A stretch of 64,000 nucleotides of DNA from an uncultured delta proteobacterium (GCA_963796055.1 CAWCKH010000004.1:448001-512000), one strand, 5' to 3'. Positions 57,865-61,026 are shown, numbered from the stretch's first letter. Made by a program: numbers and translations. Notes: generated from the letters alone by a model not told the origin.

Positions 57865-57880
57865 TGGCACTGCCGGTGCA
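57865..57880 (+). promoter_or_regulatory. Putative sigma54 -24/-12 promoter of microprotein 1
   Basis: TGGCACTGCCGGTGCA (GG-N10-GC), about 50 bp before ATG 57929. Confidence 0.75.
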
Positions 57881-57928
57881 GCGTCGACCCGCCACACCGG
57901 CTCGTCGCGGGTCGGCGGGGAGACCACC

Positions 57929-58108
57929 ATGCAGGCAGAGTTCTTCGTCGCACCCCGCGCGGTGACCTCCGGCAATCCCGGGTGGCTCCTCGGCGCCGCG
58001 TTGATCCTCTCGTACTTCTTGCTGTCCGCGGCGCTGGTGCAGGACTTCTCCCGCGCCTCGACCCCGCCGCTCGCGGGCGAGATGACCATCCTGGTGCGCG
58101 CGAGGTAG
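57929..58108 (+). CDS. Single-TM microprotein, paralog 1 (59 aa)
   Basis: GGAG RBS; MQAEFFVAPRAVTSGNPGWLLGAALILSYFLLSAALVQDFSRASTPPLAGEMTILVRAR*. Below the ORF-track cutoff. Confidence 0.75.
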   Translation: MQAEFFVAPRAVTSGNPGWLLGAALILSYFLLSAALVQDFSRASTPPLAGEMTILVRAR

Positions 58109-58169
58109 GGCCTTTGCCCATGGGTCGAAGAGGGGTGGCCGGGTCACGGTCGACGTCCCTCTCTTGCCG

Positions 58170-58358
58170 TTACCTGGCCTGCGCGACCTGGGCGATCACC
58201 GTCGGGGCGTCGGTGCTGGTGACCCGGTAGGCGCTGTACAGCGCGCCGTGCCCACCCACCCAGGCGCCGACCAGCACCGCACCGGCAACGAGGATCCCCC
58301 GCCCTCGGGTACGGGCGATCTGTTCGAACGACTTCAGCGAGGTCTGCGAGGTCTTCAT
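58170..58358 (-). CDS. Single-TM microprotein, paralog 2 (62 aa)
   Basis: GGAG RBS; MKTSQTSLKSFEQIARTRGRGILVAGAVLVGAWVGGHGALYSAYRVTSTDAPTVIAQVAQAR*. Confidence 0.72.
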   Translation of the reverse strand: MKTSQTSLKSFEQIARTRGRGILVAGAVLVGAWVGGHGALYSAYRVTSTDAPTVIAQVAQAR

Positions 58359-58416
58359 GACTGTCTCCGGTCGAAGGGTCGGCCGGCTTTCAGCGCCGGC
58401 CACGCGGACACTGAAT

Positions 58417-58432
58417 TGCACCCCCGGGGCCA
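58417..58432 (-). promoter_or_regulatory. Putative sigma54 -24/-12 promoter of microprotein 2
   Basis: Minus strand TGGCCCCGGGGGTGCA (GG-N10-GC). Confidence 0.65.
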
Positions 58433-58570
58433 CCCTGGAGGCGCTCCATGTGCTCGATTTCACAGGGCTCTCACCTTGTCCGCGTTGCGTCCGGGGTCAC
58501 GGTTCGGGATCGGCCGTTGCGCAGCCGGTCACGGCGTCGCCTTGGGGGTGTGGTCCAGGTAGGTTCACGC

Positions 58571-59983
58571 ATGCGGATGCCGTCGCGCGACAGAGAGCGG
58601 GAAATTCCTGAGGAAGTGGGCAGCGGCGAGCCGGCGCCGCCGCCCGAACGGGACGCGCATGCCACCGCCACCTTCGGCGTCAGCCGTCCCAGCCTCGTGC
58701 CGGACGTCCGCCGGTTCCGGCTGCGGGTGGTGGACGGACCGGGCGCGGGCCAGAGCTTCGAGTCCACCGGCGAGCGCACCTCCATCGGCAGTCACCCGCT
58801 CAACGACGTGCTCCTCGACGAGCGCACCGTGTCCCGCTTCCACTGCGAGCTCCTGGTCGACGAGAAGGGCGTCTGGGCCAAGGACCTCGGCAGCCGCAAC
58901 GGCACGGTGCTCGACGGCGTGCTGGTGAAGGAGGCCGCGGTCCGCAACGGGAGCCTCCTCCAGCTCGGCCGGGTCGGCCTGCGGTTCGAGCTGTCCGGGG
59001 AGAAGACCCGGCTCCAGCTGTCGGAGCACCCGAGATTCGGCTCGCTGGTGGGCAGCTCGGTGGCAGCGCGGATGAGCTTCGCCCTGATGGAGCGCGCCTC
59101 GGCCTCGGACGTCACCGTCCTCCTCGAGGGCGAGACCGGCACCGGAAAGAGCCAGGCGGCGGAGTCCATCCACCGCCAGTCGAGCCGGCGCGACCACTCG
59201 TTCCTGGTGGTGGACTGCGGCGCGATGCCGCCCAACCTCCTGGAGTCGGAGCTCTTCGGCCACGAGAAGGGCGCCTTCACCGGAGCGATGACCCGTCGGG
59301 TGGGGGTGTTCGAGGAGGCCCGGGGCGGGACGGTCTTCCTCGACGAGATCGGCGAGCTGCCGCTGGAGCTCCAGCCGAAGCTCCTCCGCGTCCTGGAGGC
59401 CAGGGAGATCCGCCGGCTGGGGACCAACACCTATACCCCCGTGGACGTCCGGATCATCACCGCCACCAACCGTGACCTGCGCGCCGAGGTGAACGCCGGC
59501 CGCTTCCGCTCCGACCTCTACTTCCGGCTGGCGGTGGTGAAGGTCTCGCTTCCTCCGCTCCGCCAGCGCTCGGAGGACGTGCCGCTCATCGTCGAGAAGC
59601 TGGTCAGCGGCCTCGGAGCGGATGCGCGGGTGAGGGCCACCCTGCTCGACCCCGCCTTCGTCGCCCAGCTGCAGCGGGCCGCCTGGCCGGGCAACATCCG
59701 CGAGCTCCGCAACCACCTCGAGCGGTGCGTGGTGCTCCAGGAGACGCTGCTCCCGGGCGAGGGGGAGGAGAGCGCCCGGCCTCCCGGCGACGCGCCCACC
59801 ACCATCGATCCGCGGGTGCCCTACCCCGAGGCGCGGCGGCGGGCGCTGGATGCCTTCGAGCGGCAGTACGTGGAGGCGCTGCTCCAGCTGCACGGCGGGA
59901 AGGTGTCCCAGGCCGCGGCCTCGGCGGACATCGACCGGGTGCACCTCTACCGGCTGATCAAGCGTCACCGCGTCCGGGACTGA
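58571..59983 (+). CDS. FHA-domain sigma54-dependent enhancer-binding protein
   Basis: FHA (IGS, VSRFH, DLGSRNGT); AAA+ GETGTGKS, ESELFGHEKGAFTGA, FLDEIGE, FRSDLYFRL, WPGNIREL; Fis-type HTH. Start 58571 or 58577. Confidence 0.95.
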   Translation: MRMPSRDREREIPEEVGSGEPAPPPERDAHATATFGVSRPSLVPDVRRFRLRVVDGPGAGQSFESTGERTSIGSHPLNDVLLDERTVSRFHCELLVDEKGVWAKDLGSRNGTVLDGVLVKEAAVRNGSLLQLGRVGLRFELSGEKTRLQLSEHPRFGSLVGSSVAARMSFALMERASASDVTVLLEGETGTGKSQAAESIHRQSSRRDHSFLVVDCGAMPPNLLESELFGHEKGAFTGAMTRRVGVFEEARGGTVFLDEIGELPLELQPKLLRVLEAREIRRLGTNTYTPVDVRIITATNRDLRAEVNAGRFRSDLYFRLAVVKVSLPPLRQRSEDVPLIVEKLVSGLGADARVRATLLDPAFVAQLQRAAWPGNIRELRNHLERCVVLQETLLPGEGEESARPPGDAPTTIDPRVPYPEARRRALDAFERQYVEALLQLHGGKVSQAAASADIDRVHLYRLIKRHRVRD

Positions 59984-60139
59984 CGGCGGACACCGACCGA
60001 CCAACACCTTCTCCGCTGTGCAGTCCCGTTCTCGCGTTGCCCCGGAAGTTCCATTTCCGGAACGGCCGTCGCCGCTGCCGCAACGGCCCTCGGGGAAGGA
60101 CCTCCGTGAAACCCCCGGCAATCACGCTCTCCGGCAACC

Positions 60140-60155
60140 CGGCACGCGCGCTGCA
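60140..60155 (+). promoter_or_regulatory. Putative sigma54 -24/-12 promoter of microprotein 3
   Basis: CGGCACGCGCGCTGCA (GG-N10-GC). Confidence 0.72.
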
Positions 60156-60198
60156 GAGCGACCGGGGGCAGGCAATGCCACCCGCAGGAGAGAAGACG

Positions 60199-60363
60199 AT
60201 GCGCGCCCAGACCGAGTCCGTTTCCCCCATCTTCCAGAACTCACGTCGTCGCTCGCCCGGGCTCGTGCTGGGAATCCTCCTGGTGCTTGGCTACTTCGGC
60301 ACCGCGGTGGTTCTCATCCGCGACTACTCGGCGGCCCCGTCGACCTTCGACCAGGTCGCGTAG
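60199..60363 (+). CDS. Single-TM microprotein, paralog 3 (54 aa)
   Basis: AGGAG RBS; MRAQTESVSPIFQNSRRRSPGLVLGILLVLGYFGTAVVLIRDYSAAPSTFDQVA*. Confidence 0.8.
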   Translation: MRAQTESVSPIFQNSRRRSPGLVLGILLVLGYFGTAVVLIRDYSAAPSTFDQVA

Positions 60364-60399
60364 CGACACGCACCACCGCTGGCGGCATGCCCTCATCGC

Positions 60400-60433
60400 G
60401 CACGGCCCGGGACGACGACGTCTCGGGCCGTGC
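60400..60433 (+). terminator. 15-bp stem-loop downstream of microprotein 3
   Basis: GCACGGCCCGGGACG-ACGA-CGTCTCGGGCCGTGC; weak U-tract. Confidence 0.6.
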
Positions 60434-60604
60434 AGTGTTCGGCGCAGCCCGTCCCCGCGCGTGCGCACCCCGGACACCTGAGCGACGGCGCGTTGCACCG
60501 GACGCCACAGCTGGCACAGGCAGTGTCACTTCCGAAGCAATGGACCCTGCCGGCTAGGCTCCTCAAGTGTCCGCAACTCCCGAGGGAAGCGGGGGGTTCG
60601 GGGC

Positions 60605-60620
60605 TGGCATCGCCGCTGCA
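60605..60620 (+). promoter_or_regulatory. Putative sigma54 -24/-12 promoter of microprotein 4
   Basis: TGGCATCGCCGCTGCA (GG-N10-GC). Confidence 0.75.
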
Positions 60621-60656
60621 ACATGGCTGGTTCGTCGAGAGACACCGGAGGACGCC

Positions 60657-60833
60657 ATGAAGCCCGAGATCACCAGCTCCAATCCCCAGCTGTTCCGCTC
60701 CTCCCGCCGCTGGAGCCCCATCCCCTTCATCCTCAGCGGCGTGCTCCTCGTCGCCGGGTACGTGGGTGCCAGCGCCGTGCTGATCGACAACTACACCAAC
60801 CACACCGCCCAGGTGGGCGGTCCGAGGGCCTGA
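60657..60833 (+). CDS. Single-TM microprotein, paralog 4 (58 aa)
   Basis: GGAGG RBS; MKPEITSSNPQLFRSSRRWSPIPFILSGVLLVAGYVGASAVLIDNYTNHTAQVGGPRA*. Confidence 0.8.
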   Translation: MKPEITSSNPQLFRSSRRWSPIPFILSGVLLVAGYVGASAVLIDNYTNHTAQVGGPRA

Positions 60834-60978
60834 ACGGAGAGCGGGAACCTCGGGGGGAACCCCGGAGGCGGCGGAACGAGGCGCAGACCCCTGTCCCCTC
60901 CTGCGCCTGGACTCGTGGGGAGAACCGCCGCACTCCGGGACCCCATTTTTGAAAGCAGCGGCCGGCAACGGCTGCCAC

Positions 60979-61026
60979 CCGAGGCTCGGAGACGACCGCG
61001 ACCGTCTCCGGGCCTCGGCGTCTTTT
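60979..61026 (+). terminator. Rho-independent terminator
   Basis: 16-bp stem CCGAGGCTCGGAGACG / CGTCTCCGGGCCTCGG (one G-U pair), followed by CGTCTTTT. Confidence 0.75.

Follow-up and report, generated by a model that had tools for sequence, protein, structure and literature searches.

A sigma54-linked family of single-helix microproteins around an FHA-domain activator in uncultured Myxococcaceae: a candidate envelope regulon

What are four tiny open reading frames (ORFs) doing on either side of a sigma54 activator that carries an FHA domain, and does that activator control them? The question arises in a stretch of 64,000 nucleotides (nt) from an uncultured delta proteobacterium (GCA_963796055.1 CAWCKH010000004.1:448001-512000), hereafter the window, from whose first letter all coordinates are counted. 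The original prediction took the ORFs, here p1-p4, for paralogous membrane microproteins of an undescribed regulon under phospho-signalling control, an interpretation that our analysis supports in part. We refer to the family of p1-p4 as family A, to its copies outside the window as q1-q6, to a second microprotein family as family B, to the window's own genome as G000 and to the sister genus as g58. Selection was gauged as the ratio of nonsynonymous to synonymous substitution (dN/dS), a crude Nei-Gojobori estimate over orthologues. The genes in question are these:

57929..58108, + strand: p1, a microprotein of 59 amino acids with a single transmembrane (TM) helix, the most divergent in family A (dN/dS 0.47, n=12)
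58170..58358, - strand: p2, a single-TM microprotein of 62 amino acids, divergent from the activator gene (dN/dS 0.51, n=11)
58571..59983, + strand: the activator, an FHA-AAA+-HTH sigma54 enhancer-binding protein of 470 amino acids, its start picked where homology to orthologues begins (dN/dS 0.12)
60199..60363, + strand: p3, a single-TM microprotein of 54 amino acids, under the weakest selection of the four (dN/dS 0.71, n=11)
60657..60833, + strand: p4, a single-TM microprotein of 58 amino acids, the most conserved (dN/dS 0.27, n=11; TM identity 94%)

The four ORFs begin where they had been predicted to begin (57929+, 58358-, 60199+ and 60657+), each behind a GGAG-type ribosome-binding site and containing a single hydrophobic 19-mer (Kyte-Doolittle 1.8-2.6), and the proposed TM pattern G-x-x-L-[VI]-x-x-[YW]-[FV]-x5-L-x3-[YF] is readable in all of them. 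A profile built from the four peptides matched 12/12 genomes of the same genus, with 4-6 copies each, and gave weak matches only (E >= 0.001) among 28 other genomes. Gene order in the same-genus loci is conserved: the epimerase gene, then p1 facing a convergent p2, then the activator, p3 and p4 in one direction. While p2 is present in 12/12 of these genomes, p1, p3 and p4 are each present in 11/12, and the missing p3 and p4 cases fall at contig ends. Shifted or reverse frames gave dN/dS values of 0.86-4.0, as compared to 0.27-0.71 for p1-p4. Conservation in relatives, on which the original prediction depended, was thus borne out, and at the level of sequence these data confirm that the four ORFs are real genes, which an uncultured genus of Myxococcaceae keeps in synteny and under purifying selection.

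Paralogy held for three of the four. Hidden Markov models (HMMs) built with one subfamily left out regained p2 (E 2e-8), p3 (8e-8) and p4 (2e-9), but reached p1 weakly (E 0.043, rank 10); on that value the kinship of p1 to family A is probable rather than firm. The G010 locus lacks p1. The Q-V-[AG] motif near the C-terminus, noted at first in three of the four, did not survive a larger sample as a family trait: Q occupies the column in 12/81 members and is unconserved among p2 orthologues.

Upstream of each window ORF, 53-75 nt 5' of the start, lies a GG-N10-GC motif whose distance is fixed among orthologues. The core of the p1 promoter, TGGCAC-N6-TGCA, is invariant in 12/12 aligned upstream regions, and a -24/-12 motif stands 45-95 nt 5' of the start codon in 76/90 non-self upstream regions. 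A sigma70 promoter scan returned 0 sites. Each of the four ORFs has its own predicted sigma54 -24/-12 promoter, conserved among orthologues. Footprinting over 11-12 orthologues further revealed a 17-base-pair (bp) dyad, GT(T/A/G)(G/A)C-N7-GC(A/T)AC, twice before p2, twice before p4 and once in strong form before p3; a GGACAC repeat considered earlier as the activator site was abandoned once the dyad emerged. Near p2 there is also an IHF-like element, W[AT]TCAA-N4-TTR, modelled on the IHF consensus, which is strict in 6/13 orthologues and relaxed in 12/13. The control elements are as follows:

57864..57881, + strand: sigma54 -24/-12 motif of p1, with no conserved upstream dyad
58416..58433, - strand: sigma54 -24/-12 sequence motif of p2
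58447..58459, - strand: IHF-like site between the dyads and the p2 promoter, a relaxed match
58484..58500, no strand: proximal dyad of p2, predicted activator site, 67 nt before the promoter (score 16.3)
58516..58532, no strand: distal dyad of p2, 99 nt before the promoter (score 12.1)
60036..60052, no strand: weak distal dyad of p3, 103 nt before the promoter (score 7.7)
60068..60084, no strand: proximal dyad of p3, 71 nt before the promoter (score 13.9)
60139..60156, + strand: sigma54 -24/-12 sequence motif of p3
60492..60508, no strand: distal dyad of p4, 112 nt before the promoter (score 17.9)
60525..60541, no strand: proximal dyad of p4, 79 nt before the promoter (score 11.4)
60604..60621, + strand: sigma54 -24/-12 sequence motif of p4

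The combination of dyad and promoter extends beyond the window. Using matrices trained without the own genome, we found a dyad 50-140 nt upstream at 17/528 promoter-like sites of that genome, as compared to 2-5/528 in six control windows; the 17 sites comprise 7 at family A genes, 3 at family B genes, 1 at a lipoprotein gene, 1 at a CBS-domain gene and 5 that are unexplained or due to chance, and q3 joins them at a lower threshold as an eighth family A gene with a dyad. In g58, 19/19 family A rows carry both promoter and dyad in unrelated gene neighbourhoods (two false long-ORF rows were dropped, and two rows are re-fetches). A pattern derived from the g58 loci gave 20 matches in 5 genomes, 16 of them at peptide genes, as compared to 5 for the reversed pattern, and shows few other predicted targets. 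Dyad-promoter distances cluster at 57, 67-71, 79, 88-90, 99-103 and 112 nt and are roughly in phase at 10.5 bp (R=0.75 over 20 sites; R=0.63, p=0.016 over 10 distinct distances).

Several results weigh against so orderly a picture. Orthologue footprinting found no conserved dyad before p1, and q5 has neither promoter nor dyad. The g58 pattern is circular for its 16 peptide matches, because it was derived from those same loci. When the distance clusters are collapsed, R falls to 0.59, with p=0.049 at a fixed period and p=0.19 at a free one. Finally, a looser dyad-plus-promoter pattern in IUPAC (International Union of Pure and Applied Chemistry) letters gave 38 matches in five same-genus genomes as compared to 40 for the control, and so no enrichment.

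We sought the protein that reads the dyad among the sigma54 activators of the own genome, of which there are about 29, a number that itself tells against singling out the neighbour. The window activator, which lies between the two ORF pairs as predicted, has an FHA domain, a Sigma54_activat domain (PF00158, E 1.5e-65) with GAFTGA intact and an HTH_8 match just under the cut-off (E 5e-4). Three observations pick it out: firstly, orthologues more than 70% identical to it were found in the own genus and g58 alone (121 genomes; next best 61%), which are the two genera with sigma54-linked family A; secondly, its sole close paralogue (59%) was not found in G007, G010 or G003, genomes that keep family A, family B and the lipoprotein; thirdly, related activators of other genera (61-64% identity), from which it stands apart as a separate supported clade in their tree, have a similar recognition helix, and 9/18 of their loci carry dyads before a gene for an exported protein of ~500 amino acids. 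In eight of those nine a GG-N10-GC site follows the dyad, mostly at about 69 and 100-104 nt, although the promoter scores in these distant genera are low (0.4-10). Together, these data suggest that the window activator very probably binds the dyad, and that the small-membrane-protein family is probably controlled by the adjacent activator. The predicted regulon of small membrane proteins under sigma54 therefore stands as a candidate, with own promoters, a conserved dyad and co-distribution of family and activator in its favour.

FHA-domain sigma54 enhancer-binding proteins of the same FHA-AAA+-HTH architecture were reportedly described in Myxococcus xanthus by Jelsbak and colleagues in 2005, and the window activator is 61-64% identical to the activators at MXAN_3095-like and MXAN_4339-like loci. 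In gene order and sizes the related-activator loci match MXAN_3092-3095 and, in a second group, MXAN_4339-4341, as given in supplement 11 of PMC6791715; among the papers searched we found none on MXAN_3095, MXAN_3093 or MXAN_4339. At the MXAN_3095-like loci the same dyad precedes the MXAN_3093-like exported gene and the recognition helix resembles that of the window activator, but at those loci Ser/Thr kinases flank the activator, whose visible target is the ~500-amino-acid exported protein, whereas the targets at the window locus are microproteins and neither those kinases nor the exported gene were found. We predict that the MXAN_3093-like gene is a direct target of the MXAN_3095-like activator in these large-genome genera. 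The distant loci with dyads are L187, L189-L191, L193-L195, L198 and L200, where the exported MXAN_3093-like protein has no Pfam match; L193 and L203 show the same design before a second exported helical protein (272 amino acids in L193).

How far does the regulon reach? Family B, undescribed like family A, comprises proteins of 46-83 amino acids, with 5 copies in the own genome, and is present in 12/12 same-genus genomes and in 0/13 others tested; most members have a promoter and a dyad at 88-90 nt, and profile comparison showed no similarity to family A (probability 0.5%). Its longer members share a near-invariant hydrophobic segment (96%). The own copies lie at G000 C4:3599816-3602545 (L161, three copies), C2:208865-209017 (L162) and C4:299374-299550 (L163); the G007 orthologue of the C2 copy is a lipoprotein of 307 amino acids, so the own copy of 51 amino acids may be truncated. 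A two-cysteine lipoprotein is likewise found in 12/12 same-genus genomes, with a dyad at 88-91 nt in 16/16 listed loci besides the own one (G000 C4:1275621-1276037, L160:2122-2538; promoter and dyad at 90 nt), and in 4/8 g58 genomes, in two of which it immediately follows a family A gene. It falls into no known family, and its model has four helices and no structural match at E<=0.001, the best Z of 6.1 being uninformative for a helical bundle. A protein of 157 amino acids with an apparent CBS-domain pair, judged by eye (G000 C4:51473, - strand, L164), has a promoter, with a weak dyad 111 nt away, and is a possible member. Separately, an ORF of 63-64 amino acids encoding a soluble product, conserved in G010, follows a weak sigma54 motif with phased dyads (G000 C4:2917312, L167; L209). 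These elements make the locus appear to be the centre of a dispersed envelope regulon composed almost entirely of microproteins.

As for family A itself, a 62-row alignment matched 49/201 family-level genomes at E <= 0.01, with strong matches in the own genus and eight g58 genomes (2-6 copies each); phylum-wide, with 18 candidates scored per genome, 31/351 genomes matched at E <= 2e-4, 30 of them within the Myxococcaceae-level family. There were 45 matches among 1.84 billion representative sequences, and the family was seen solely in uncultured-type genomes. In the own genome 10 members stand clear of the remainder (E gap 1e-9 to 0.5), six of them outside the window. Among these, q6 and q3 lie on either side of a threonyl-tRNA synthetase gene (G000 C2:55512-57990, L043), and q1 (G000 C4:2597456-2601648, L041) lies beside an integrase, a small excisionase-like ORF and a transposase fragment, all judged by eye; the q1 orthologue in G007 has different neighbours.

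As predicted, no characterised family in the libraries covered matched the peptides. Sequence searches of Pfam, NCBIfam and PDB turned up no family consistently, none in Pfam or NCBIfam matching more than 5/62 or 4/89 members even at E<=1, and the best single match was COX14 (E 3e-4, in 1/89 members). In the ESM Atlas the best match of p4 was an unnamed 62-member cluster at 0.95, possibly p4's own and with a recognition value below the reliable level, and peptide P0026 had nothing at or above 0.9; Foldseek with the p3 model gave no match. Database names of homologues, which put the organism within the Myxococcaceae, are mostly 'hypothetical protein', with one 'uncharacterized membrane protein' label and some unrelated enzyme names, an apparent misannotation. 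Weak matches inside long ORFs (L078, L094, L095, L100, L102, L141, L154, L156, L157, L159) were set aside as chance TM matches.

The expansion had been attributed to local duplication, which the distribution of copies does not support: in a tree with few columns and many open forks, p2 clusters with dispersed paralogues, apart from p3 and p4, so the expansion was not simply a local tandem one, and the six further copies lie elsewhere in the genome. The proposed search of relatives for homologues beside such activators succeeded in g58 as well, where one p4-like copy sits immediately 3' of the orthologous activator gene and faces the same GMC oxidoreductase gene in convergent orientation. This arrangement points to activator plus p4-like peptide as the likely ancestral unit, with p4 the likely counterpart of the g58 peptide.

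What might the peptides do? Among 81 core members, a profile from which eight distant peptides (below) were kept out, the conserved columns are F12 (63), R16 (51), R17 (52), G25 (66), L28 (64), G34 (57), L39 (68) and Y/F43 (71), with a run of small residues at 34-37. Mean net charge is +2.1 before the helix and +0.1 after it, which by the positive-inside rule places the N-terminus in the cytoplasm; we are fairly confident that family A proteins are single-pass inner-membrane proteins of this N-in topology. AlphaFold gave p3 one helix, residues 20-44. TM identity within orthologue groups (p4 94%, p1 78%, p2 73%, p3 63%) equals or exceeds that of the flanks and is higher than the 52% of the signal h-region in the co-regulated lipoprotein, which favours a working role for the helix inside the membrane, by way of specific contacts. 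An amphipathic N-terminal helix was considered and dropped (hydrophobic moment 0.51 as compared to 0.45 shuffled, higher in just 44/80).

The explanation that we prefer, at a probability of about 0.5 for the whole, runs as follows. The activator would bind the dyad, often as a tandem pair ~32 bp apart, and reach, by looping, the sigma54-RNA polymerase on -24/-12 promoters that lie 57-112 nt downstream. The output would be a dispersed regulon of nearly all tiny envelope proteins, containing up to 10 family A copies, family B and the two-cysteine lipoprotein. Family A would insert with its basic F-x3-R-R segment in the cytoplasm and a tail of 10-20 residues in the periplasm, and would act stoichiometrically, its small-residue face (G25, G31, G34-G/A37) contacting one or more membrane partners, much as MgrB binds and inhibits PhoQ according to passages of PMC10723866; different paralogues would tune different partners. 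For the step in which the uncleaved peptide binds a membrane partner, we put the odds at even. Two results count against it: no conserved candidate membrane partner adjoins the family A genes, and a permissive signal-peptidase (-3,-1) rule is satisfied after position 37 in 66/81 members.

The latter result is the starting point for the alternative that survives best, although we consider it rather unlikely: family A peptides might be precursors of secreted signals, cut after the G-x-x-small run to release paralogue-specific peptides of 17-25 residues, comparable to Phr/PapR-like precursors, which could feed back on the activator pathway. The C-terminal tails are kept within orthologue groups (92% identical for p4) and differ between paralogues, and longer members of the co-regulated family B combine a textbook A-L-A|D site with a D-x-G-P-G-S-D-E motif conserved at the C-terminus. 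But L39 (68/81) and Y/F43 (71/81) carry the helix past the putative site, as does the AlphaFold model, conservation of the TM part exceeds that of a signal peptide from these genomes, and no peptidase, oligopeptide importer or receptor was noticed beside the copies with listed neighbours.

It is unlikely, too, that the role is structural, with homo- or hetero-oligomers formed through the glycine face remodelling the membrane or forming a small pore or coat during development or under stress, in concert with family B and the lipoprotein. Many co-induced paralogues behind separate promoters would suggest high dosage, the small residues (25, 31, 34-37) lie on one face, and every recognisable regulon product is envelope-bound; on the other hand, no immunity or export gene was noticed beside any copy examined, and paralogue-specific invariant residues, such as an intramembrane His in p2, fit distinct partners better than a generic pore. 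A homodimer prediction for p3 scored 0.02 and gave no verdict.

We also asked what the FHA domain might sense. It is GarA-like (E 4e-12), and of the features of a canonical phospho-Thr FHA domain it has S-x-x-H (as S-R-x-H) and N-G but not G-R: the position that aligns to the arginine of G-R in GarA is Ser (G-S) in 18/18 clade members. According to passages of PMC3162421, phospho-Thr binding depends crucially on three FHA motifs, the G-R arginine among them. For the kinases that flank related activators the own genome has no orthologue (best 40-47%, in the kinase domain only), nor was the exported gene flanking those activators found there, and there is no conserved Thr column among the 81 peptides. 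With the arginine lost and the flanking-kinase orthologues missing, phospho-signalling control is not supported as first proposed; it is possible, and the input of the activator may not be phospho-Thr. The literal circuit would have Ser/Thr kinases act on a Thr ligand, perhaps the cytoplasmic N-termini of the peptides themselves, which once phosphorylated would dock on the FHA domain and so control the activator. It appears improbable on the same evidence, even with the two retained motifs, 55 kinase-like matches in the genome, kinases beside related activators in other genera and two dispersed own-genome copies that adjoin kinase genes; the kinase neighbour of q1 is not retained in G007.

That the peptides are short type IV/Flp pilin-like, Tat-signal-like or ElbD/E ether-lipid accessory subunits is very improbable: a basic N-terminus that leads via Gly into a hydrophobic run, remote single-copy relatives encoded behind tatC in several genera and a position 3' of elbD/E in the same-genus loci reaching that far speak for such roles, but Glu+5 occurs in 0/81 members, Gly before the hydrophobic run reaches at most 42/81 per column and is absent in p4, the list of families matched by 89 members at E<=1 includes no pilin Pfam, a TatFind-like motif of the S/T-R-R-x-hydrophobic-hydrophobic type occurs in 6/81, and no elbD/E lies beside the activator in g58 locus L096. 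Pilins were accordingly rejected for lack of a class III signal (Gly-1, Glu+5), Tat substrates on the TatFind-like count together with R-R in 36/81 and no passenger domain, and a lipoprotein reading of family A on a lipobox Cys in 1/81. The tatC-linked relatives, the group to which the eight peptides kept out above belong, are single-copy TM peptides of 59-65 amino acids, often with C-x3-C, that lie in several other genera downstream of tatB-tatC and/or convergent with microcompartment genes (L076, L079, L101, L103, L106, L140, L142-L148, L150, L155) and lack a sigma54 motif. They may be distant relatives of family A or a separate Tat-linked microprotein, homology being uncertain; no family A member lies behind tatC in the own genome.

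The cluster had also been placed directly downstream of elbD/E-like genes. Upstream of p1 there is indeed an ElbD-like domain set (FAR-like, AMP-binding, ACP, acyltransferase), an architecture that matches ElbD as described in passages of PMC9131029, with an ElbE-like gene/epimerase. The placement holds in same-genus loci reaching that far; as a functional link it is not supported, since in L096, the only g58 locus read far enough upstream, the activator lies behind an alpha-2-macroglobulin gene. In the window, OsmC-like and LiaF-like genes stand before elbD (51213-52227) in place of elbA-C. A degenerate remnant of a fifth small single-TM ORF, with a shortened hydrophobic run, lies at about 57680-57820 (- strand) between p1 and the epimerase gene; the ORF is intact in L021, L029 and L037 (60 amino acids, E-W-L-L-V-G-Y motif) and divergent from p1. 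On the other side, 61115-63099 holds a putative lipoprotein, an AraC regulator and an ORF of 211 amino acids between p4 and the GMC oxidoreductase gene; these are particular to this genome and were not found at the corresponding place in same-genus loci. Three hairpins complete the locus:

58124..58168 (approximate), no strand: hairpin between convergent p1 and p2, a candidate terminator without a T-run
60396..60440 (approximate), + strand: G+C-rich hairpin 3' of p3, kept in orthologues, a candidate terminator or processing stem
60979..61018, + strand: intrinsic terminator-like hairpin with a T-run 3' of p4, the 1 found in the scan, as compared to a shuffle mean of 1.0, and so not above chance

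Sigma54 regulons and small membrane modulators are both known kinds of system. MgrB and SafA are small single-helix membrane modulators of PhoQ, each single-copy and driven by sigma70 and two-component regulators. Family A resembles them in size (47-65 amino acids), one TM helix, a short predicted periplasmic tail and being the probable output of a regulator, but has up to 10 paralogues behind sigma54 promoters, and we found no sequence similarity. In the phage-shock (Psp) regulon, the activator PspF is associated with the small membrane proteins PspB, PspC and PspG. The window locus likewise has a sigma54 activator divergent from a small inner-membrane protein gene, tandem upstream sites, an IHF-type site and a narrow regulon; unlike Psp, its activator has an FHA input domain and its targets are dispersed paralogues, not one operon, and no peptide matched the PspA/B/C families. 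Nla28 of M. xanthus acts at sigma54 promoters with paired activator sites ~80-150 bp upstream (in passages of PMC7910581), a likeness in layout, but its site is a CT(C/G)CG(C/G)AG direct repeat whereas the window site is an inverted dyad of other sequence. By analogy with MgrB, whose inhibition of PhoQ is described in passages of PMC10723866, the likeliest function of family A would be that of MgrB/SafA-like inner-membrane peptides. Family A, the dyad and a near-all-microprotein envelope regulon were not found in the literature searched, outside which lay subscription papers and preprint supplements, nor were target sites for the clade of the window activator.

Together, these results provide, from sequence alone, a microprotein family under selection and, for one clade of FHA-sigma54 activators in myxobacteria, a candidate regulon with a candidate binding site. 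The regulon would be unusual in that nearly all of its recognisable outputs are envelope proteins of 50-140 amino acids annotated as hypothetical. Because the dyad also precedes the MXAN_3093-like gene, the DNA-binding prediction is testable in M. xanthus, and such a test would also bear on whether FHA domains that lack the key Arg read phospho-Thr. As a tentative possibility, an activator with a non-canonical FHA domain may run at least 15 microproteins in two unrelated families together with a disulfide lipoprotein as a paralogue-specific peptide code, whose members would either modulate different sensors within the membrane or be processed and secreted as signals feeding back on the activator. 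If true, this code would constitute a peptide signalling layer not described in the myxobacterial literature searched.

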